From Anaerolineales bacterium (GTDB lineage: Bacteria; Chloroflexota; Anaerolineae; Anaerolineales; DRKV01): a stretch of DNA of 41,308 bases. Within the stretch, counting starts at the first letter, position 1; every line of letters starts with the position of its first letter. Of the stretch, positions 7,710 to 20,600 are shown one piece after another. The position numbers were made by a program, and so were the translations under genes. The stretch is taken from NCBI GenBank assembly GCA_020061145.1, contig JAGUYX010000113.1, positions 1 through 41,308 on the forward strand. The letters are read 5' to 3'. The notes below the pieces were generated by a model. That model was not told where the DNA came from. It saw only the letters and a list, made by a program, of their open reading frames with translations, and did not search any database.

Positions 7710-8015
7710 GTGAACAAGATCCTGGTTGAGTTCTTCAGCACCTGCCCGGGTTGAAAAGCTGATGAGCAGTTGGTAACTGCTATCTGCGCCAGCCCTGCTT
7801 GGCGCGACAGGGTCGAGCTCAAGGTATATCGCCTGGACCAGGACCCTTCCGAGGGCAAAAGGTATGGGAATATTCGGGGAGCCACGGTCGTGATTAACCA
7901 GAGGGACATGCTTCGACGGATAAACGCCTATGCCTTGCAGCAAGCCTTAGCACAGGCAGAAACAAACCAGATAAACGAACACCTGGCCGTGAATAATGAG
8001 TGGTTCCATGAATAG
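7710..8015 (+). CDS. Thioredoxin-like selenoprotein, CxxU (SaoT-like); TGA at 7752
   Basis: GAGGA RBS and GTG 7710: MNKILVEFFSTCPG-U-KADEQL...VELKVY...KRYG...TVVIN, in frame with track ORF 7770..8015. Confidence 0.85.
7761..7784 (+). promoter_or_regulatory. Candidate SECIS hairpin
   Basis: GAT-G-AGCAGTT-GGT-AACTGCT-ATC, with the GGT loop 17 nt after the TGA. Confidence 0.75.
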
Positions 8016-8568
8016 CACTATGCTGATCCTCTTGTTCACCCTCCTCTCAACAGTGGCTCTTCTGCTGTTGGCAAACAAGCTCCGCCTTTTCCGCGACCGG
8101 GAAGTGGTTGGATCAATCCTTCATTTGGCGATCACTGACCGGGAAAGCGTGCGGCTTGGCATCGTAGCCGCGGCAATGTATGTGGCGGTTTTTATGATTT
8201 TTGGCGGTCAGGGTGGCCGTATCCATGTTTTTTGGGGACGCTGGATCCTCACCATGACCGCCGGTGATGCCGTTCTTGGCGTGTTCATCGCGTTCCTGAT
8301 CGGACTGGCGGTGGTCCTGATCTCCTACAGTATCAAAGCCATGGGATTGCCCAAGGCTGGAAAGGGCGGAATAGGCGTATTGGGCACGGCGCTTGCCATG
8401 CTTGCTTCTTTCTGTCCCTGATGACTCCCCATGATCACAGCTCTGGTCGGAGCTGCAGGAGCCGTATTCTTAGCCAGCTATTGGAGCCTGCTGGCGCTTT
8501 TGTCGATCGATATGCTCCTGGCCAGCGTTTTGATGTTGGTAGCGAAGTTGAGAGATGAGGCGACTTGA
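7996..8568 (+). CDS. Multi-TM membrane selenoprotein with CPUU motif (tandem TGA 8419, 8422), 190 aa
   Basis: The track ORF ends LASFCP. TGA TGA is followed by 47 further hydrophobic codons (LPMITALVGAAGAVFLASYWSLLALLSIDMLLASVLMLVAKLRDEAT*). Confidence 0.8.
8438..8455 (+). promoter_or_regulatory. Candidate SECIS hairpin
   Basis: CAGCTCT-GGTC-GGAGCTG with the loop 20 nt after the second TGA. CTCC/GGAG can form a lower stem. Confidence 0.72.
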
Positions 8569-8659: not shown

Positions 8660-9862
8660 ATGATTTACCTGGATCATGCCGCGACGACCCCCGTCCGTTC
8701 CGAAGTGCTGGATGCCATGATGCCCTTCTTCTCGTTAAATTATGGCAACCCTTCGAGCCTTCATCATAAAGGCCAGGAGGCCTCTCAAGCGCTCGAAGAT
8801 GCCCGCCAGTCAATCGCCAAAGACTTGAATTGTTATCCGGATGAGATCGTTTTTACAAGCGGCGGTACAGAGAGTGATAATCTTGCCATCCGCGGGTATG
8901 CATTTGCCAATCAACGAAACGGCAAGCACATTATCACCTCCTGCGTCGAACACCATGCTGTTCTAAACACCTGCCGCCAGCTTCAACAACACCATGGTTT
9001 TGAAGTCACGTACCTGCCGGTCGATTCGACCGGGATGGTATCCCCAGACGATTTCCAGGGGGCGATCAAACCAGAGACGATCCTGGCGAGCATCATGTAT
9101 GCCAACAACGAGGTGGGCACGATTGAACCCATTCGGGAATTGGCCCGGATTGCGCATGACCACGATGTCGGGTTTCATACGGATGCCGTCCAGGTCTTGG
9201 GACTGATAGATTTGAATTTGAGAGAGCTCGGGGTGGATATGCTCTCGCTCTCAGCCCATAAGTGTTATGGCCCCAAGGGTGTAGGGGTGTTGTTTGTGAA
9301 GCGCGGGGTCCTGCTCATGGAAATCCATGCCGGCGGGGGGCAGGAGAGCACACGCCGCTCTGGGACGGAAAATGTACCGGGGATCGTCGGCATGGCTACG
9401 GCAATCCACCTGGCCTTCTCGGGTTACCGGAAAAACCTGCATCGTTTGGAGAAGTTACGCGACCGCTTGATTGAGTATATCCTGGAGGAAGTACCCGGTG
9501 CCCAGCTCACAGGACATCCTGCTCAGCGCTTACCGAATTCCGCCAGTTTCACCTTCCCGAATATACCTGGCCCGGATGAATTGATTTTATTGCTTGATTT
9601 GAATGGAATTGCGGCCTCCAGCGGGTCAGCCTGCCATGCGAAATCCATCGAACCTTCTCATGTGCTCACCGCAATGGGCGTTTCTCTGGAGCGATCCTCC
9701 GGCAGCCTGAGGCTCAGCCTGGGATATGAGAATACAGAAGAGGAGATCAAACAGGTGCTGCACATCTTGCCAGAGGTGGTGATGGAACTGCAAGGGCTGT
9801 CGGGGGGCTTTCATGCTACGAACAGCAAAGCAAAAAATCCATATCTAGAATCGGGAAAATAG
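8660..9862 (+). CDS. iscS: Group I cysteine desulfurase (IscS/NifS-like)
   Basis: IYLDHAATTP, GNPSS, FTSGGTES, SAHK (PLP Lys), RSGTENV and SSGSACH motifs. Confidence 0.92.
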   Translation: MIYLDHAATTPVRSEVLDAMMPFFSLNYGNPSSLHHKGQEASQALEDARQSIAKDLNCYPDEIVFTSGGTESDNLAIRGYAFANQRNGKHIITSCVEHHAVLNTCRQLQQHHGFEVTYLPVDSTGMVSPDDFQGAIKPETILASIMYANNEVGTIEPIRELARIAHDHDVGFHTDAVQVLGLIDLNLRELGVDMLSLSAHKCYGPKGVGVLFVKRGVLLMEIHAGGGQESTRRSGTENVPGIVGMATAIHLAFSGYRKNLHRLEKLRDRLIEYILEEVPGAQLTGHPAQRLPNSASFTFPNIPGPDELILLLDLNGIAASSGSACHAKSIEPSHVLTAMGVSLERSSGSLRLSLGYENTEEEIKQVLHILPEVVMELQGLSGGFHATNSKAKNPYLESGK

Positions 9863-12016: not shown

Positions 12017-12111
12017 GGGAGTGATTGAGTCCTGGTGGGCTCCTCGGTCTTCAAAACCGCTGTGGGGAGGTGGAAACCTTCCTGGGTGGGTTCGACTCCC
12101 ATTCACTCCCG
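12017..12111 (+). tRNA. selC: tRNA-Sec (anticodon TCA)
   Basis: 8-bp acceptor stem GGGAGTGA/TCACTCCC, anticodon loop CTTCAAA (TCA 12051-12053), long variable arm, 5-bp T stem with TTCGACT loop, G discriminator. CCA is not fully encoded. Confidence 0.96.
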
Positions 12112-12162
12112 CCTTTTACGCAGTATATGACAGGATTGCTTTGATAGAAAGGAGGTATGCCG

Positions 12163-12276
12163 GTGCGAAAATTAATCCTCTGCATATGATTCGATTTCAC
12201 CCAACGCAGTGACTGCGTTATTTCTGTACACAGACCGCGATGCTGCACATCCCCGAACCGGCATCCCTCCACGTAG
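12163..12276 (+). CDS. Putative Sec-containing leader peptide (CxU; TGA 12187), 37 aa
   Basis: Strong SD AAGGAGGT 6 nt before GTG: MRKLILCI-U-FDFTQRSDCVISVHRPRCCTSPNRHPST*. A SECIS-like hairpin AACGCAG-TGA-CTGCGTT lies at 12203-12219. Confidence 0.55.
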
Positions 12277-12300
12277 AGAGCGTGCAACCGAAGCAGTTAC

Positions 12301-12365
12301 ATACTCCCTGGGGGCTGGTTCCGGCGGCTGGCAGCCGGCCCATGTCAACCAAATGGAGGGAGTAT
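12301..12365 (+). promoter_or_regulatory. SD-sequestering structure upstream of yedE
   Basis: ATACTCCCT (12301-12309) is the exact reverse complement of AGGGAGTAT (12357-12365), which covers the yedE SD. Confidence 0.55.
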
Positions 12366-12370
12366 TTTTC

Positions 12371-13516
12371 ATGTCTGCACATAATCGGTTTTTTGCCTCA
12401 CGCTGGGCAATGATATTGACTGGAGGCGCAATCGGTGCCCTTGCGGCGTTGCTGGTCAAATGGGGAAATCCAGGCAATATGGGGCTCTGTATGGCCTGTT
12501 TCATCCGAGATATTTCTGGAGCCTTGGGACTGCACCGCGCTGCAAGCGTACAATATATCCGTCCTGAGGTGATCGGACTTGTTCTGGGGGCGAGTGCTGC
12601 TGCCATAGGCTTTAAAGAATTCAGAGCACGCGGTGGATCCGCCCCCCTCCTCAGGTTTCTATTTGGCAACCTGGCGATCATTGGCGCCCTGGTGTTTCTG
12701 GGTTGCCCCTGGCGGGCGTATCTGCGATTGAGCGGGGGTGATTGGAATGCCATTCCCGGCATTTTGGGATTGGCCGCCGGAGTCTTTTTAGGGGTCCTGC
12801 TCCTGAAGGCAGGTTTTAGTTTGGGGAGGAACCAGCGTGGACCCGCTCCGATTGGATTCGCTTTTCCCGCCCTGGTGATCCTCCTCCTATTCCTATTGGT
12901 CTTCGCGCCCATGTTCGGACGGGATGCCGATGGCAGACTGGTTGGTCCGATCTTCTTCTCCGAGAATGGGCCGGGTGCGCAGCATGCACCGTTGCTAATC
13001 TCACTCTTTATTGGTCTGGTGATCGGCTTCCTGGCGCAACGTAGCCGTTTCTGCACGATTGCCGGGTTGCGCGATCTGATGCTCATGGGGGATACTCACT
13101 TTGCTAGCGGCATTGTAAGCCTTGTGGGGGTCGCGTTTCTCGCCAACCTTGCCCTGGGCCAGTTCAAACCCGGCTTTGCTGATCAGCCCATTGCCCATAC
13201 CGACGCACTTTGGAATTTCGGCGGTATGGTATTGGCAGGGTTGGCATTTACCTTGGCTGGGGGCTGCCCTGGGAGGCAGCTCATTCTGGCTGGCGAAGGC
13301 GATGGAGACGCGGCCATGTTCGTCTTTGGTCTGCTGACCGGAGCAGCCATCTCCCATAACTTTAACCTGGCAAGTACGCCGGCTGGCCCGAGCCCCTACG
13401 GACCTGCGGCAGTTGTGGGCGGTCTGCTGGTTATTTTGGTTGTTGGCCTGGCGATGCGTGAGCGCTTGGTGGTATCGACGGAGAGTATGCAAGTTACGCA
13501 AGAGGTGAAAGCATGA
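12371..13516 (+). CDS. yedE: YedE-family putative selenium transporter
   Basis: GNPGNMGLCMACFIRDISGALGLH, VQYIRPE, FLGCPWR, QRSRFC and GGCPGRQL motifs. ATG 12371 follows GGAGGGAG. Confidence 0.93.
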   Translation: MSAHNRFFASRWAMILTGGAIGALAALLVKWGNPGNMGLCMACFIRDISGALGLHRAASVQYIRPEVIGLVLGASAAAIGFKEFRARGGSAPLLRFLFGNLAIIGALVFLGCPWRAYLRLSGGDWNAIPGILGLAAGVFLGVLLLKAGFSLGRNQRGPAPIGFAFPALVILLLFLLVFAPMFGRDADGRLVGPIFFSENGPGAQHAPLLISLFIGLVIGFLAQRSRFCTIAGLRDLMLMGDTHFASGIVSLVGVAFLANLALGQFKPGFADQPIAHTDALWNFGGMVLAGLAFTLAGGCPGRQLILAGEGDGDAAMFVFGLLTGAAISHNFNLASTPAGPSPYGPAAVVGGLLVILVVGLAMRERLVVSTESMQVTQEVKA

Positions 13517-13743
13517 ACCAGACACCCGAATCACTTCTCGTAGACGCCCGGGGGCTGAGCTGCCCGCAACCGGCAATCCTCACGCGCCAGGCGATCAGCC
13601 AGGCGGCTGGTAGGGTGCTCGAGATTCTCGTGGATGCAATAGCACAGCGCGATAACGTGATCCGCGTGGCGGTGAAAGAAGGCTGGTCGGCAGTCCCAGA
13701 AGAGACAGCCGATGGTCGGATACGCATAAGATTGACGAAGTAG
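13513..13743 (+). CDS. TusA/SirA/YedF-family sulfur/selenium carrier
   Basis: VDARGLSCPQP motif, coupled to yedE. Confidence 0.9.
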   Translation: MNQTPESLLVDARGLSCPQPAILTRQAISQAAGRVLEILVDAIAQRDNVIRVAVKEGWSAVPEETADGRIRIRLTK

Positions 13744-13749
13744 GCAGAT

Positions 13750-14916
13750 TTGGATTCAAGTCTGATTTATCTGGATAACGCCGCCACCTCCTGGCCGAAA
13801 CCGCCGGAGGTTGTTCAGGCAATGGCCAGCTTCATCGCAGAGAGCGGTGGAAATCCGGGGCGTTCTGGTCACCGTCTGTCTCTGGCGGCTGGCAGAGTAG
13901 TGTACCAGGCGAGGGAAGAACTGGCCGACTTCTTCGGGTTAGATGACCCTCTCCGTTTAGTGTTCACCGCCAATGTGACCGAGGCCATCAACCTGGCGCT
14001 CTATGGGCTACTGCGCTCTGGTGATCACGTTATTGCCAGCAGTATGGAACATAACGCCGTCATGCGCCCTCTCAGGCACCTGCAGCGTGAAGGCGTACAT
14101 CTGAGCTTCGCCCCCTGCGGGATGGATGGCCATGTTTCCTTAGCGCATGTTGAAAAACTGCTCAAAACCCAAACCCGCCTGGTTGTGGTCAACCACGCTT
14201 CCAATGTAACCGGAACCATTCAGCCCATTGCAGAAATCGGCGCGCTCTGCCGAGAACACAACACTCTCTTCCTGGTTGACGCGGCTCAGACTGCGGGTGT
14301 ACTGCCGATCAACATCGAAGAGCTTCAAATCGACCTGCTCGCCTTTACCGGTCATAAGGGGTTACTGGGACCAACCGGTACTGGTGGATTGCTCCTGGGT
14401 GAGCGGGTGCCGTTCGAGGAGATGAAGCTGCTGGTGCGGGGTGGAACGGGAAGCCGGTCGGAATACGAGGAGCAGCCTGAGTTCCTGCCTGATCGCTTTG
14501 AAAGTGGCACCCCCAATTCGATCGGACTGGCCGGCCTTTTGGCAGGCCTTCAATTTATCAAGTCACACGCGCTGGATGCCTTACGCGAACAGGAAACTTC
14601 TCAGTTAGCCCGCTTGATCATAGGGCTGAGTAATCTCCCAAACGTCCGGCTGTTTGGCCCGCGCGATCCATCCCGACAGGTACCCGTGGTCTCTTTCACG
14701 CTCGATGGCATGCGGGTATCGGATATCGGTTTTCGACTGGATGAAGAATATGGCATCCTGTGCCGGCCTGGCTTGCAATGTTCCCCTGCTGCTCATCGTA
14801 CCTTAGGGACTTTCCCGCATGGAACGGTCCGGCTCTCTCCAGGTCCATTCACAAAAGATCGTGAAATTGAGAGCGTGCTCGAGGCGGTTGAGAGGTTATC
14901 GGCGGAATTACTATGA
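13750..14916 (+). CDS. Cysteine desulfurase/selenocysteine lyase-like class V aminotransferase
   Basis: IYLDNAATSWPKP, GNPGRSGH, FTGHKGL and RPGLQCSP motifs. Typical of selenium-utilisation operons. Confidence 0.88.
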   Translation: MDSSLIYLDNAATSWPKPPEVVQAMASFIAESGGNPGRSGHRLSLAAGRVVYQAREELADFFGLDDPLRLVFTANVTEAINLALYGLLRSGDHVIASSMEHNAVMRPLRHLQREGVHLSFAPCGMDGHVSLAHVEKLLKTQTRLVVVNHASNVTGTIQPIAEIGALCREHNTLFLVDAAQTAGVLPINIEELQIDLLAFTGHKGLLGPTGTGGLLLGERVPFEEMKLLVRGGTGSRSEYEEQPEFLPDRFESGTPNSIGLAGLLAGLQFIKSHALDALREQETSQLARLIIGLSNLPNVRLFGPRDPSRQVPVVSFTLDGMRVSDIGFRLDEEYGILCRPGLQCSPAAHRTLGTFPHGTVRLSPGPFTKDREIESVLEAVERLSAELL

Positions 14917-15140
14917 GTCAGTACGGAGTTGTATTGTTCTCGGGTACCCAGGCAGCCTTACGAGCTGAAAAACTGCTTGAGAGGGTTGGGCAGGTGGTGA
15001 AGTTGATTCCCACTCCCCGGCACTTGAGCTCCGATTGCGGGGTTGCGCTTCGTTTTTCCTGGGCGGAACAGAACGAAGTGGTCAACACGTTAGATCGGGC
15101 CAGGCTCGCCTATGAGACTATCGCTATTCTTGATGGGTAG
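14913..15140 (+). CDS. DUF3343 putative Se/S carrier-like protein
   Basis: VVLF....ALRAEKLL....KLIPTPRHLSSDCGVALRF. Confidence 0.85.
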   Translation: MSQYGVVLFSGTQAALRAEKLLERVGQVVKLIPTPRHLSSDCGVALRFSWAEQNEVVNTLDRARLAYETIAILDG

Positions 15141-15151
15141 GTGGCATCGAA

Positions 15152-16201
15152 GTGCTAAAAACAACCATTCGTCTCACCGAACTCTCCTCCTGTGCGGGTT
15201 GAGCATCTAAGCTGAGCCCAGAGGCTCTGGCGCAGGTGCTGCGCCCTTTGCGTGCCATGTTCCAGCCCCAGGATTGTCCCGATCTGATGGTCGGCATTGG
15301 TTGTCTGGATGATGCCGCCGTGTATCGCTTGGACAGTGAACGGGCCCTGATCTTCACGACAGATTTTTTCACGCCGGTGGTGGATGATCCGTATGACTAT
15401 GGAGCCATTGCCGCAGCCAATGCCCTTTCTGACGTGTACGCCATGGGCGGAGCGCCGTTGCTGGCGCTAAACCTGGCCGCGTTTCCAGCGCGCCTGCCGG
15501 CTGAGATCCTTGGGCAGGTGTTGATGGGAATGGCGGATATGGTCAAACAGGCTGGGGCTGTGGTGGCTGGAGGCCATACGATCCAGGACGAAGAGCCAAA
15601 AGTCGGCTTGTGCGTGGCTGGGATGGTCCACCCGGACAAGCTGCTCACCAAGGGAGGTGTGCAGCCTGGCGATCAGCTAGTGTTAACCAAGCCTCTTGGG
15701 ACAGGCCTTATTACCACGGCTGCCAAAATGGATCTGGCGGATCGGGAGGATGTCGATGAGGCAATCCAGTGGATGAGACGGCTTAACAGAGCTGCCGGGA
15801 AAACCGCAGCGGACCTGGACTTGCGAGGCGGTACCGATGTCACCGGATTCGGCCTGTTGGGTCATGCCTGGGAAATGGCAGAAGCGTCGCGAGTAACCCT
15901 TAAGGTTTTTTTTGAGGCAGTGCCGTTCATGAACGGTGTTGTCCGTTATGCCGACCAAGGGCTGTTCCCCGGCGGAACGGCATCGAATTATACGGCTTAT
16001 AGCAAACGGATCCATTTTGCAGAATATTTGAATGAGGATCAAAAGATGCTGCTGTTTGATGCGCAAACAAGCGGAGGACTACTCTTGGCCGTGCCACAGG
16101 AGAAGATGGGGGAGTTCTCCAATATGATGGAATTCCATGGCGAAAAGTGTTGGATCATCGGTGAGGCGGTGGGCAGGGAAGCCGGAATTCAGGTCATCTG
16201 A
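15152..16201 (+). CDS. selD: Selenophosphate synthetase, Sec-containing (U17, TGA 15200)
   Basis: GTG 15152: MLKTTIRLTELSSCAG-U-ASKLSP; then DDAAVY, TTDFFTP, ANALSDVYAMGG, GGHT, TDVTGFGLLGH, FDAQTSGGLL. Hairpins at 15214-15227 and 15229-15245. Confidence 0.96.
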
Positions 16202-16227
16202 CCATCAGCCTGGGAAGGAGGGTTGCC

Positions 16228-18141
16228 ATGTATGTAGTCGGTACAGCCGGTCATGTCGATCATGGAAAGTCGACGTTGGTGCGGGCATTGACTGGGATCG
16301 ACCCCGACCGTTTGAAAGAAGAAAAAGAGCGCGAGATGACGATCGATTTGGGGTTTGCCTGGCTGGAACTGCCCAGTGGTCAGGAAGTCTCGATCGTTGA
16401 CGTTCCCGGGCACGAAGACTTCATTAAAAACATGCTGGCCGGGGTAGGGGGGATCGACGCTGTACTGCTGACGGTAGCTGCGGATGAGGCGATCATGCCT
16501 CAGACGCGCGAACATGTGGCGATTCTCGATCTCCTGGAGGTCAAGGCTGGCCTGGTTGTGTTGACAAAAGCCGACATGGTGCCTGACGAGGAATGGTTGG
16601 AGTTGGTCAAAATGGATGTGGCGAGTCTGCTGGAGAAAACCTCACTGGCAGGCGCCCCGATTGTGTTGGTATCCTCCAAGACCGGGAAAGGTCTGATCGA
16701 TCTGGAAGACAACCTCGATGCCCTTCTCAAGAAAACCCCACCACGCCGAGACTTCAACAGGCCGCGCCTATCTATTGATCGAATCTTTACAAAGCCCGGA
16801 TTTGGGACTATCGTCACCGGGACGCTGATTGATGGTCGTTTTTGTGTGGGAGATGAAATCGAGATCCAGCCGAAAGGGTTGAAGGGGCGAATCCGCGGGC
16901 TTCAAACCCACAAAAACAAAGTGGAAGTGGCCACTCCTGGCAGCCGAGTCGCGATCAACCTGACCGGCGTGAATCTGGAAAATCTCAGCCGGGGAGACGT
17001 TGTCACTCATCGCGGTTGGTTGAGCGGTACGGTTTTAGTGGATGCCCGCATCCGGGTTCTGGAGGACTTTGAACTGGCGCTGAGGCATGACATGGAAATC
17101 GAGATCTTCTCCGGGGCCTCACAGGTTTTGGGTCATGCCCGGGTGCTCGGCGCGGATGAAATTCGTCCTGGAGAATTAGGCTGGGTCCAGATCCGCCTGG
17201 TTGATCCAATTGCGTTGGTCAAAGGGGATAGGCTGATCCTTCGCCAGCCCTCTCCAAGCCGGACGATCGGCGGAGGAGTAGTTATCGATCCGCATCCCTA
17301 CCGCAAGCACCGCCGTTACCACGAAGAGGTCATCCGCCATTTAGGGGCAATGGCATCGGATACGCCTGAGGAAATCTTGCTGGCGACGCTGATGAAACAG
17401 GAGCCTATCTCAGCGCGGCTGGCCGTCCAACGCAGCCAGCTTGATTTGGAAGCAGCAGGAAGTGCGTTGTCTAAGCTGCTGGCAGAAGGATTGGTCTATG
17501 TGCTAAATAGCGACACTTCCGATCCTGGCAAGCTTGTTTCTGGCTCTTCCAACCTGATTTCCGCGGAAGGTTTCAATCGATTTGTTGAGCGGATCCGACA
17601 GGTCCTTTCGGAGTATCATACTGCGTTCCCGCTCCGCCTCGGGTTGCCCAGAGAAGAGTTGAACAGCCGCCTGGGTTTGGACCGTCAATTGGTCAATACC
17701 ATCGTAGAGCGTGCCGTGAAGCTGGGCTCGATTAGGGCTGTAGGGGGAAGCCTTTCCTTACCGGGGCACAAAGTGCTATTTTCTCCTGAACAACAGAGGC
17801 AAATTAACCAGGCTTTGGAGGTTTTCCGTCAGGCGCCTTTCACCCCGCCCCCTACAAGAGAGGTAGCATCGCTGATTGGAACAGAGGTCCTCTTTGCGCT
17901 CCTTGAGCAGGGGTGCTTGACCCAGGTGAGTAAGGATGTCGTTTTCATGACTGATACCTACAACCGCATCATCGAACAGGTTGTACAACACCTGAAGGAA
18001 CAAGGTACGATCACGATAGCGGAGGCGCGCGATCTCTTCAATACCAGCCGGAAATATACCCAGGCAATCCTCGAGCACATGGACGAAAAACGGATTACCA
18101 AGCGCCTGGGTGATAACCGGATATTACGACAAATGACTTAG
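16228..18141 (+). CDS. selB: Selenocysteine-specific elongation factor
   Basis: [35 protein letters not shown], and C-terminal winged helices with SRKY. Confidence 0.97.
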
Positions 18142-18224
18142 TAAAAGGTGATTTTAAGTAGTAAGGGTTTATCCGGCTATACTTTAAACTAACATTAATC
18201 TTTCTTAACCAGCGAAGGTTGAGT

Positions 18225-20600
18225 ATGAGACTACAACTGCGATCAAGACTCTTCTGGCAGGTATTTATCATCGTCCTGATCGGTTTGGGTCTGACATCGA
18301 TCGGCATGGCTGCACTCAGCCTGCAGGCAATCGATGATAATACACACCGTGCCCTGGAGGAGCGCCTGGTGTTGAGCCAGGCGATCGCGGGACGGGTGGA
18401 TGACTACCTGCATGAATCTACCCGCCACGTGGAGATCCTCATTGAAAGCGAGGGCATCGCCCAACACATGGAGGACGAAGCTCTTGCCCAGGAGTTTGTG
18501 GAAAAGGTGAAGTACCACCTGGGCAATTTTGCTTACTTCACGGTGTTGCTGGATAACTCGCGCCAGGTTGTCAGCATGGCTCCCTACAACGAAGAAGTGA
18601 TGAAAAATGATTTTACTTCAGCGAAATGCGTCGAGTTCGTCAGCGTTCACCGGACACCGGTTATCACGCGCGCCTTCGTGTTGGGAGCGCCCACCCACAC
18701 GGTCGCCCTGGTTATCCCTATCCTGGACAAGGAACAAACCCAGGTAGGTACGCTATTTACCGCCCTCAACCTGACCGACGAGGTCTTCACGCGTCTATTG
18801 AAACCCTGTTGTCCTGGGACAACCGGCCATTCGGAGATTGTCGATTCCACCGGATTGGTTCTTGCAAGTACGCAGCCTGAAAATTTATGGAAAGAAGATG
18901 GTCATGGCGAGCAATTCGACCAGTTGGTGTCTGATCGTCGATCGGTGGTGGGCACCTGTCACACTTGCCATATCGAGGATTCGCAGGTGATCGCACGTGA
19001 GGACGAGGTGATGGCTTTTGCGCCTCTAGCGTCTGCACAATGGGGTGTAGCCCTTCGGCAATCCAGCCAAGAGGCCTTTACCTTTGCGTCCATATTGAAA
19101 AAGCAACTGGCTGTGTATTTTTCCGTTGCCCTTCTGGCTGGGGTTGGAATCACATGGATGTTTACCAAAAGGATTGTGCGCCCCATCGAAAAGCTGACCT
19201 CGGCCTGCCAGGAAATTACGGAAGGGAACTTGTCAGTGGAGGTCCCGTTGGAAGGACCGGGCGAAATTGGCCGTCTGGGATCCTCGTTCGCTTTGATGCG
19301 CAACCGACTGAAAGAGTCCTTGAACCAAATTCAGAACTGGGCGGACGAGCTTGAAGACCGCATCCGACTGAGGACCACAGAGTTGGAAGAATCACAGGAA
19401 AAGCTTCAGAAGGCAAACCGGGAATTATCGGTTTTGAATACGGTTGGAGACGCATTGCGCCAGTCGCTCAACCTGACCTCGACCATGAACACGGCTCTCG
19501 AGAGGATGATCGAGTTGAGCGAAGCAGGGTTTGGTTGCATATTCCTGAAACAGCAGGAGAACCAGGAGCCGGTTATCGCTGCCCAGTCCTCACGAGATGT
19601 CGACTTTGGCATCACCAGGTTGCTTCCCGCTTTACGATCCCACGTGACGAATATTTTTTCGAAAGAACGGGCGGACGCGTTCAAGATGCCATTGCGTTCC
19701 ATCCCCTTGAACAATCATCGGGAGGTGGATTACTTCATCGCGACATTTATCCCTCTGATCGGAAAAGAAAGCATTCCTGGTGTGATGGTCCTGGTCAAGA
19801 AAAACCACTGCGGTTTTTCTATTCACGAAAAAGAACTGTACCGCTCGATTGGCATACAGATTGGGATTTCTATTGAAAATGCACTTCTTTTTCAAAGATT
19901 GCTTCAAAAGGAAGAATCGCTCAGCCAGTTGGTTCATAAGCTGATTGCAGCTCAAGAGGAAGAACGGCGCCGGATTGCCCGCGAATTGCACGACGAGACC
20001 AGCCAATCCCTAACGGCGTTAAGTGTGGGATTGAGAACGGCGATCATGGCAAAGGCAAGAACACCGGAAGAGGTCAAGAAGCGATTGGGGCCTTTGGATG
20101 GGATGGCCTCGGGTATGCTTGAGGAAATTAGTCGTATGATCCAGGATCTGCGTCCCAGTCTGCTGGACGACATGGGTTTACTGTCCGCCTTAGACTGGTA
20201 TGCAGACGTTCGCCTGCGGTCTAGAGGAATTCAGGTCAGTTGGGAGATTGTGGGCATAGAACGGCGGCTTCCCCTGGAACTGGAAACGACGATTTTCCGT
20301 CTGGGGCAAGAAGCGATCAGCAACGTTGCCAAACACGCCAAAGCCGAGAGCGTTACCATCCTTATTGAATTTCTAGACCACCACATCGTTCTTGAGATCG
20401 ATGATGATGGGAATGGGTTTGATGCAGAGCAAATACTGTCGAACAATCTATCGTCTATGGCGTATGGTCTTTTGGGGATGCGTGAGAGGGTAGACTTGTT
20501 TGGCGGTGTTCTAACAATTGATTCTAGAGTAGGAGTCGGCACCCGCGTTCGGGCTGAACTGCCGGTGATGGTTGCGCCAGTCGCGGATATAACCATATAA
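18225..20600 (+). CDS. Sensor histidine kinase (Cache-like with CXXCH, HAMP, GAF, HisKA_3/HATPase)
   Basis: Two TMs, extracytoplasmic CHTCH, HAMP, EERRRIARELHDE, DDGNGF, GLLGMRER. Confidence 0.92.
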   Translation: MRLQLRSRLFWQVFIIVLIGLGLTSIGMAALSLQAIDDNTHRALEERLVLSQAIAGRVDDYLHESTRHVEILIESEGIAQHMEDEALAQEFVEKVKYHLGNFAYFTVLLDNSRQVVSMAPYNEEVMKNDFTSAKCVEFVSVHRTPVITRAFVLGAPTHTVALVIPILDKEQTQVGTLFTALNLTDEVFTRLLKPCCPGTTGHSEIVDSTGLVLASTQPENLWKEDGHGEQFDQLVSDRRSVVGTCHTCHIEDSQVIAREDEVMAFAPLASAQWGVALRQSSQEAFTFASILKKQLAVYFSVALLAGVGITWMFTKRIVRPIEKLTSACQEITEGNLSVEVPLEGPGEIGRLGSSFALMRNRLKESLNQIQNWADELEDRIRLRTTELEESQEKLQKANRELSVLNTVGDALRQSLNLTSTMNTALERMIELSEAGFGCIFLKQQENQEPVIAAQSSRDVDFGITRLLPALRSHVTNIFSKERADAFKMPLRSIPLNNHREVDYFIATFIPLIGKESIPGVMVLVKKNHCGFSIHEKELYRSIGIQIGISIENALLFQRLLQKEESLSQLVHKLIAAQEEERRRIARELHDETSQSLTALSVGLRTAIMAKARTPEEVKKRLGPLDGMASGMLEEISRMIQDLRPSLLDDMGLLSALDWYADVRLRSRGIQVSWEIVGIERRLPLELETTIFRLGQEAISNVAKHAKAESVTILIEFLDHHIVLEIDDDGNGFDAEQILSNNLSSMAYGLLGMRERVDLFGGVLTIDSRVGVGTRVRAELPVMVAPVADITI

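Follow-up and report, generated by a model that had tools for sequence, protein, structure and literature searches.

The selenium operon of an Anaerolineales bacterium of the Chloroflexota (assembly GCA_020061145.1), running from yedE to selB, lies on contig JAGUYX010000113.1, whose 41,308 nucleotides (nt) are referred to as the window throughout. The gene of the selenocysteine tRNA (tRNA-Sec), selC, is placed directly 5' of a leader that precedes yedE, and 225 nt separate selC and yedE. Within the leader, a short upstream open reading frame (uORF) with its own Shine-Dalgarno sequence (SD) contains an in-frame UGA followed by a hairpin, and this folded and conserved element probably lets the cell set the selenium operon by its current capacity for inserting selenocysteine (Sec). 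A first-pass annotation of the window had proposed a Sec-codon leader peptide at this position, and every sequence feature it named is present, i.e. the SD, a C-I-TGA frame, the hairpin at 12203-12219, the TAG at 12274 and an anti-SD strand. The leader is composed of the following elements, in which SD1 and SD2 denote the SD sequences of the uORF and of yedE, P1 to P3 denote helices, and SECIS stands for selenocysteine insertion sequence:

12150-12155, plus strand: SD1 (AGGAGG), read from the sequence and aligned with the near-invariant GGRGG of 25 relatives
12163-12186, plus strand: uORF of eight sense codons (V/M-RKLILCI), with GTG 12163 as the family-consistent start
12169-12197, plus strand: helix P2, uORF codons 3-5 (12169-12177) with 12188-12197 in the minimum-energy fold, placing the UGA at the stem edge
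12187-12189, plus strand: in-frame UGA, candidate Sec codon, an invariant column in alignments A1 and A2
12190-12276, plus strand: read-through part of 28 codons plus the stop TAG 12274-12276, from the reading of the frame
12203-12219, plus strand: SECIS-like hairpin P3 (AACGCAG/UGA/CUGCGUU), a 7-bp stem with loop UGA beginning 13 nt past the UGA codon
12257-12270, plus strand: segment 2, the 3' strand of P1 (ACCGGCAU.CCUCC), pairing in folds with SD1 and the start region at 12151-12164
12301-12309, plus strand: anti-SD2 strand AUACUCCCU, which sequesters the yedE SD in predicted folds
12310-12341, plus strand: inner hairpin of the 3' domain (12312-12324 with 12328-12341), with its 5' strand (12310-12324) able to pair instead with segment 2
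12355-12365, plus strand: SD2 region GGAGGGAGUAU of yedE, in which the free fold pairs 12357-12365 with 12301-12309

The uORF had originally been started at ATG 12157, which is in frame but just 1 nt past SD1; the relatives align instead to GTG 12163, which lies 7 nt past SD1 in the column occupied by the ATG, GTG or TTG starts of all relatives. Read from ATG 12157, the leader frame is MPVRKLILCI-UGA(12187-12189)-FDFTQRSDCVISVHRPRCCTSPNRHPST-TAG(12274-12276). The long-range helix P1 (12151-12155 with 12266-12270, and 12157-12164 with 12257-12264) encloses the uORF and the hairpin, and in its inner part ACCGGCAU (12257-12264) pairs with AUGCCGGU (12157-12164). This helix had been missed by the first-pass annotation, where TCCCTCC (12264-12270) was offered as a strand sequestering the yedE SD; both the minimum-energy fold and the family consensus pair it mainly with the uORF's own SD, and the role given to TCCCTCCA changes to that of closing P1 on SD1. 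The other sequestering strand holds up, as ATACTCCCT (12301-12309) is complementary to AGGGAGTAT (12357-12365) and paired with it in the free fold. Segment 2 together with 12253-12256 has an alternative partner at 12310-12324, which includes the complementarity of GAACCGGC (12255-12262) to GCTGGTTC (12314-12321). TAG 12274 begins 3 nt past 12270, the last base paired in the 3' strand of P1, and the anti-SD2 strand follows 24 nt after this stop. Compared with 200 dinucleotide shuffles, the P1 duplex (-27.8 kcal/mol) has a z score of -4.0 and the yedE-SD stem (-14.5 kcal/mol) one of -2.2; the z score of the entire leader fold is -3.2. Pairings resembling P2 are also predicted in the folds of relatives.

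Around the leader, selC and the genes of the operon are arranged as follows:

12017-12113, plus strand: tRNA-Sec (selC), anticodon TCA (ARAGORN; Rfam RF01852, 73.5 bits)
12371-13516, plus strand: yedE (Sulf_transp family), first gene of the operon (Pfam PF04143, E value 1.5e-11)
13513-18141, plus strand: remaining operon genes, TusA/yedF to selB (Pfam)
13513-13743, plus strand: TusA/yedF gene (Pfam)
13750-14916, plus strand: class-V aminotransferase gene, NifS-like (Pfam)
14913-15140, plus strand: Se/S carrier gene, DUF3343 (Pfam)
15152-16201, plus strand: selD, start GTG 15152, Sec UGA 15200-15202, N-terminus SCAG-U-ASK
16228-18141, plus strand: selB (Pfam)

The SelD encoded here is itself a predicted selenoprotein, and a 321-aa frame listed from 15236 is the C-terminal portion of SelD only; as a selenoprotein, SelD would already place a positive loop inside the operon. 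Two candidate hairpins, GAGCC-CAGA-GGCUC and GGCGCAG-GUG-CUGCGCC, follow its UGA, and either may be the SECIS. In the source assembly (3.15 Mb, 92% complete), selA is located on a different contig (C146), and no such leader was found upstream of it. An FdhA-like selenoprotein with CARL-U-HS is encoded on the minus strand of contig C316 (L174), with a SECIS candidate, GUCGCC-GGUCU-GGCGAC, that begins 12 nt past the FdhA UGA. With tRNA-Sec, selB, a Sec-containing SelD, selA and an FdhA-like selenoprotein all found, the Sec-decoding trait is complete in this genome. A sigma-70-like promoter was looked for between selC and the leader (12017-12156) and not found, so that the two may be co-transcribed and the leader may be a 3' extension of the tRNA-Sec transcript. 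Two further genes lie close by: a second class-V aminotransferase (NifS/selenocysteine-lyase-like) at 8660-9862, within 6 kb of the operon copy at 13750-14916, and a large sensor histidine kinase (dCache, HAMP, GAF, HisKA_3) at 18219-20600, directly 3' of selB.

Conservation, covariation and the in-frame UGA

Among 40 related genomes, ranging from members of the same genus to members of the same order, the leader DNA gave one weak 34-nt match only and YedE was found in none at an E value of 1e-20. Since neither was found in close relatives, the comparison was anchored on YedE loci from wider collections (80 genome-collection and 80 metagenome-collection loci, numbered with an L here; best YedE identity 69%). 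Upstream regions of yedE (161 regions of 450 nt each) were scanned for uORFs in which an SD-like site and a start precede 3-15 codons that end in a stop; this stop was TGA in 71, TAG in 23 and TAA in 11. A hairpin of at least 5 bp within 6-45 nt followed 64 of the 71 TGA, 7 of the 11 TAA and 12 of the 23 TAG uORFs; this measure is nonspecific and was therefore not used as evidence. By inspection of the listings, a Chloroflexota-type leader was counted in 46 of the 161 upstream regions, the window included. All 19 genome-collection loci titled Anaerolineae, Chloroflexi, Chloroflexota or Dehalococcoidia carry it, and the codon is always UGA; the first-pass annotation had named a lack of conservation of the uORF and its TGA as grounds for abandoning its proposal, a check that the proposal passes with the SD-uORF-UGA-hairpin arrangement kept upstream of yedE in all 19. 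When the other 100 upstream regions were searched for additional uORF families, only near-identical duplicates came up.

The family layout opens with GAAAGGRGGUGACGCN and an ATG, GTG or TTG start; seven or eight codons then lead to the UGA (in all 26 main-family leaders), which is followed by a hairpin, e.g. GAUGCAC-GUU-GUGCAUC. Across the 26 aligned leaders neither the UGA nor the TG of the start codon varies. Variants comprise an 11-codon type, MGKLQTxFSLR-U (L093, L099, L102, L108, L115, L117), compact types with 5 or 12 codons (L031, L051/L156, L060, L055) and ten leaders from two clusters with a tandem UGA-NNN-UGA (L007, L011, L013, L014, L019, L086, L088, L089, L096, L100). In the tandem leaders, which read UGA-UUA/UUG/UCA-UGA, an overlapping AUG or GUG opens a mini-frame of 4-5 codons that ends just before the hairpin. 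Of 401 genomes sampled from the class, 9 carry the main-family 5' motif, each in a single copy (reversed control pattern, 0 hits).

A covariance model (R2, from alignment A2) was built from 25 relatives with the window excluded and run over the whole window with filters off. Its top match on either strand, among the 72 matches listed, is the leader itself (12145-12289, 20.9 bits, E value 8.8e-5), the second-best match reaching 9.2 bits (E value 0.25). The window leader is a divergent yet recognisable member of the family, and its P1 is compensatory relative to the family, with GGUAUGCCGGU:ACCGGCAUCC in place of GGUGACGCN:NGCGUYGCC. A search of its own genome with R2 returned no matches and missed the window copy itself, which makes it uninformative. 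Weak model matches inside yedE were dropped as chance, those YedE frames being without an in-frame stop. The SelD hairpin GGCGCAG-GUG-CUGCGCC (15229-15245), third-best R2 match at 9.1 bits and an E value of 0.25, resembles the leader hairpin and is recorded as a lead only.

P1 and the hairpin are both predicted by RNAalifold when it is given 26 leaders aligned with MAFFT and left unfitted. For 18 specified pairs, 89.1% of the cells hold standard pairs, compared with 28-54% after sliding the 3' partners over 1-3 columns; both sides have changed in 8 of the 18, and the covariation score of 0.299 (0.06-0.12 for slid partners) was reached by none of 500 shuffles. The aligned hairpin is the best conserved paired element in the relatives (90.7% paired, both-side changes at four of seven pairs). 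In the 3' domain the sequence varies among subfamilies and the pairing is kept, as in GGGYUCC...GGARCCC, CCAGCCUCC...GGAGGUUGG and, in the window, AUACUCCCU...AGGGAGUAU.

These results bear on a trivial explanation in which the hairpin at 12203-12219, with its T-rich tail, serves only as an intrinsic terminator for selC, the uORF being a frame that arose by chance. A terminator scan did flag the site (7 bp, 4 GC pairs, tail ATTTCTGT), at a rate of 1 site found for 0.7 expected in shuffles. Homologous hairpins have neither a T tail nor an upstream tRNA: none of the 80 genome-collection loci has a tRNA-Sec within 600 nt upstream of yedE, the adjacency being specific to the window. The model that excludes the window recognises the whole 145-nt leader and there is no promoter-like site for yedE downstream of the hairpin, and a selC terminator is scarcely credible to us.

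The hairpin and the UGA are arranged as in bacterial SECIS elements, including the fdhA and selD candidates of this genome: an in-frame UGA is followed, 11-13 nt later, by a short GC-rich stem-loop with a small loop. A bacterial SECIS is expected about 11-15 nt past the UGA of a translated frame; the frame of the leader is SD-driven and its stem-loop has covariation support, and the host has selA, selB, selC and selD. The spacing past the UGA is 13 nt in the leader, 12 nt in FdhA and 11-12 nt in the SelD candidate, all in one genome. SelB recognises nucleotides of the apical loop, with G/U in the loop, or of a bulge. The leader loops are UGA, GUU, GUG, GGG, CGUGA and CGGGC, and each of them, like the FdhA loop GGUCU, has a G. 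Two observations weigh against a standard SECIS: the window loop UGA differs from the FdhA and SelD loops, with no common SelB motif seen, and the ten tandem leaders, each with one hairpin, fit a single SECIS poorly.

The frame behind the UGA is open. Up to the end of the P1 3' strand, a position set without reference to any stop, frame 0 is open in 24 of 26 leaders and 10 of 12 clusters, compared with 8 of 26 for frame +1 and 11 of 26 for frame +2 (tandem leaders read from the second UGA). The read-through stop follows immediately past segment 2 in the L008-type leaders and lies 8-13 nt ahead of the GGGYUCC SD stem in the main family. In five leaders (L011, L086, L096, L100, L014) an insertion of about 70-190 nt with GACGAA/GTCGTT-rich repeats separates the P1 3' strand from the read-through stop and folds into a long hairpin; the L011-type insertion leaves the frame open as far as a stop just before the 3' domain. 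We infer that Sec would be inserted at the UGA and that SelB would bind the hairpin.

It is rather improbable that the UGA is a plain stop and that the hairpin is a SelB operator, at which bound SelB (with Sec-tRNASec) alters folding or uORF termination. The precedent is the operator in the 5' untranslated region of E. coli selAB, on which, in the available part of PMC13449736, SelB-GTP-Sec-tRNASec bound to a SECIS-like structure represses. Both are SECIS-type hairpins in the leader of a Sec-pathway operon that would report Sec-tRNASec/SelB in cis; an operator role would suit the rank of the hairpin as best conserved element, and the tandem UGA-NNN-UGA of ten leaders would serve as a safe double stop. 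The E. coli element, however, lies 3 nt from the selA SD, requires neither an ORF nor a UGA and acts by occupancy (as far as described in the available part of that source), whereas the hairpin here (end 12219) follows an invariant uORF UGA and stands about 135 nt before the yedE SD (12355), not adjacent to it. An operator also leaves unaccounted for the invariable use of UGA at a SECIS-like spacing, the post-UGA frame that stays open through segment 2, and the preservation of this frame across the long insertions of L011-type leaders.

The frame itself could encode a functional small selenoprotein of ~37 aa, e.g. a CxU selenium carrier with no regulatory role, and the C-I-U of the window, the C-U of L051 and L060 and the CC..U of L103 fit this idea. 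The leader peptide, of 30-45 codons across the family, is not conserved among subfamilies (RRT-U, QLL-U, HLR-U, LCI-U), the recurring post-UGA M-H/R-V-x-H is the conserved hairpin translated, and four leader peptides had no NCBIfam match at E values up to 10. A functional selenopeptide is on these grounds very unlikely, and nucleotide pairing accounts for the conservation.

Alternative helices and the direction of the response

The leader can be divided into segment 1 (12151-12164, SD1 and start), segment 2 (here 12253-12270), segment 3 (12301-12324) and segment 4 (12355-12365, SD2), the pairings of which would be mutually exclusive. In the mechanism we propose, the 225-nt leader would act in cis, reading the capacity to decode UGA as Sec and setting the translation of yedE-yedF-(NifS-like)-DUF3343-selD-selB. 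A ribosome would load at SD1, translate eight codons and reach the UGA at 12187, with the hairpin 13 nt further on acting as SECIS. With no translation, 1:2 and 3:4 would form and both SDs would be closed. Termination at the UGA, when Sec-tRNASec or SelB is scarce, would leave segment 2 free to pair with segment 3, which would release the yedE SD and turn the operon on. If the UGA is read as Sec, the ribosome would cover segment 2 up to TAG 12274, 3:4 would re-form and the operon would be off. Since the read-through stop lies just past segment 2 and short of segment 3 and the SD stem, a ribosome terminating there would cover segment 2 and leave 3:4 intact.

The complementarity underlying the switch is conserved. 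The median cluster z score for pairing of segment 2 with the 5' part of the 3' domain is -1.74, compared with -0.09 and +0.23 for two control windows of equal length. In an unfitted alignment of 15 distinct leaders from three clusters, 123 of 134 cells of the 2:3 core helix hold pairs, as opposed to 34-50% for slid partners, a contrast that is inflated because the helix was derived from one reference sequence; one of its column pairs shows AU, GU, UG and CG. For the same 15 leaders the corresponding counts of paired cells are 149 of 165 for P1 and 92 of 104 for the 3:4 core. P1 and the 2:3 helix use identical segment-2 columns, and the SD stem and the 2:3 helix use identical segment-3 columns.

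Ribosome positions were represented by masks: in state B, from SD1 to 12 nt past the UGA (ribosomes on the uORF without read-through), and in state C, at the read-through stop. For the free RNA of the window (state A), 1:2 and 3:4 are predicted to pair. In state B, 12253-12267 is predicted to pair with 12310-12324, extending the GAACCGGC:GCUGGUUC helix of the first-pass annotation and releasing SD2, and in state C, with a ribosome at TAG 12274, the 3:4 stem re-forms in the model. The competing helix between 12255-12262 and 12314-12321, originally suggested from complementarity, is thus recovered in the fold with the uORF masked, and an equivalent helix is kept in 15 distinct relatives. The median unpaired probability of SD2 over 26 leaders is 0.14 in the free RNA, 0.45 in state B and 0.21 in state C; state B raises it by >0.2 in 7 of 26 leaders, and in the window from 0.12 to 0.32.

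The output of the switch may differ within the family. A U run after the inner hairpin of the 3' domain is found only in L008, L009, L016, L020 and L105 (e.g. GGGUCUCCGG...CGGAGCCCAUUUUUAUUU), and this terminator-like hairpin with U run suggests a transcriptional expression platform in that subfamily. The 3:4 element of the window sequesters the SD and has no U tract, in which it departs from the intrinsic terminators of attenuators.

From the strand complementarity and the masking simulations we infer negative feedback, in which read-through turns the operon off and poor Sec decoding turns it on; we hold this direction tentatively, at a little under an even chance. It agrees with the rise of the yedE transcript by 5.3 log2 units on selenium starvation in the archaeon Methanococcus maripaludis (as given in the available part of PMC11097638), and with the repressing SECIS-like operator of E. 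coli selAB, as far as it is described in the available part of PMC13449736. Several observations weigh against it. In the window, SD2 is still mostly paired in state B (0.32 unpaired), and 19 of 26 leaders, including all five terminator-type leaders, shift by <0.2. An earlier mask with a ribosome at the UGA and SD1 free gave no consistent opening of SD2. Release factor 2 (RF2) terminates and does not stall at UGA, so that state B needs frequent initiation. In L011-type leaders, 86-185 nt lie between segment 2 and the read-through stop, and a terminating ribosome cannot mask segment 2 there.

Further points against negative feedback come from the compact relatives, and these same points favour the same Sec-sensing leader with reversed polarity, in which a read-through ribosome would open the SD stem or re-initiate at yedE, and selenium or Sec-tRNASec would turn the operon on. 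In L031, L051/L156 and L060 the yedE ATG and the read-through stop overlap in an ATGA, in L005/L084 this stop falls within the anti-SD2 strand, and in L102/L109 the read-through frame runs across that strand; the position of the main-family stop, 8-13 nt short of the GGGYUCC stem in which the yedE SD is paired, and the positive loop already provided by a SelD selenoprotein point the same way. The window stop, by contrast, is 24 nt short of the anti-SD2 strand, and the mask at the read-through stop barely opens SD2 (median 0.21; a rise of >0.2 in 1 of 26). Reversed polarity also leaves unexplained both the conserved 2:3 complementarity and the consistent placement of the stop short of the stem, and a product that induces its own uptake system is less usual than one that represses it. 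We regard the reversal as unlikely, though, in view of the compact relatives, not far-fetched.

The proposal of the first-pass annotation has therefore stood in part. A Sec-codon leader that would control the selenium operon is supported by the conserved layout and the competing helix, and fails as originally written in its start codon and in the role of TCCCTCCA. Its polarity, read-through as the off signal, is backed by the masking simulations and the strand complementarity and opposed by the compact relatives, whose read-through stop falls either across the yedE ATG or within the anti-SD strand.

A second family and the relation to known systems

In Desulfobacterota-labelled and related metagenome loci an unrelated uORF, M-x-x-[F/C]-F-G-F-T-UGA-x6-[S/T]-x-R-V-R-stop, was found, with 8 codons before the UGA and 10 codons between the UGA and the stop. 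This FGFT-U family has 13 copies in 11 loci (L039:4706-4790; L059:2775-2860 and 8211-8300; L081:3230-3320 and 7846-7930; 7 further loci), and its uORF nucleotides pair with the strand behind an apical hairpin, UACCCGGGUUCGGUA, forming a long stem. In 9 loci the uORF lies ~260-530 nt upstream of yedE; it also precedes tRNA-Sec and selB (L059), tRNA-Sec, a porin gene and yedE (L081), an HdrD-like gene and a BcrAD/HGD-D gene. Its position ahead of a tRNA gene implies a transcriptional output there.

This second family also bears on whether the Chloroflexota leader senses Sec at all. A structured leader responding to another signal (RF2 activity at the UGA, a metabolite or a protein), with incidental Sec-like features, would be compatible with the strong structure (z -3.2), with several conserved helices and with the modest thermodynamic effects of masking. 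Yet the element is upstream of yedE in every case found, once per genome and, in the window, next to selC; Desulfobacterota have an unrelated family of UGA uORFs ahead of selC-selB and yedE; and no Rfam family matches the window leader (12114-12400) at E values up to 10, L004 and L039 giving chance-level matches only. A signal other than Sec is accordingly quite improbable, and a Sec-dependent regulator, of either polarity, is the reading we consider rather likely.

In the trpL, hisL and pheL attenuators, a leader ORF contains codons for the product of the pathway, the 1:2, 2:3 and 3:4 pairings are exclusive, and the stop is placed so that the ribosome masks segment 2. The window leader shares with them an SD-driven short ORF that contains the cognate codon (one UGA) in the 5' leader of the pathway operon, four segments with exclusive 1:2, 2:3 and 3:4 pairings according to predicted energies only, and a leader stop at which a read-through ribosome would mask segment 2. 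It differs in that the sensing codon would be a stop recoded by SECIS, SelB and Sec-tRNASec, the alternative being termination and not stalling; in that its output in the window would be SD sequestration and not a terminator; and in that segment 1 is the uORF's own SD, so that the untranslated leader would also be closed. In tnaC, with its UGA and Rho, and in prfB, with its frameshift at UGA, tryptophan or RF2 is sensed without a SECIS. As in these systems, the fate of the ribosome at the UGA of a short leader or early ORF would decide downstream expression; the sensed event proposed here is recoding, with a SECIS-like hairpin. Unlike the SECIS of a selenoprotein gene, the candidate here lies in an ORF of 30-45 codons whose peptide is not conserved and belongs to no family, and its loop differs from the GGUCU of FdhA.

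Full-text literature searches, with supplements and subscription journals outside their coverage, returned no description of such a leader in the text available, and in the available part of a 2026 review of prokaryotic selenoproteomes the terms 'leader', 'uORF' and 'attenuat' do not occur. The leader would be a form of ribosome-mediated leader control outside any named family. Beyond the window, we think it fairly probable that Sec-codon leader peptides are an undescribed class of cis-regulators, with recoding as the input of a ribosome switch, that has arisen at least twice (in Chloroflexota and as FGFT-U in Desulfobacterota) and governs a selenium regulon of yedE, selD, selB, selC and more.

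The sensing of selenium status by bacteria is a largely open question. The presence of a leader could aid the annotation of selenium regulons, as the Desulfobacterota family precedes porin, HdrD-like and BcrAD/HGD-D genes, and short UGA-containing ORFs beside sel genes need not be selenoprotein genes. The leader also offers a compact part (~220 nt) for selenium- or SelB-responsive expression. If our reading is true, the leader would be a direct and testable sensor that measures the real output of the pathway, Sec insertion at UGA; natural stop-codon recoding would be used as a regulatory signal and not for making a protein, and leader-peptide attenuation would be extended to the 21st amino acid.

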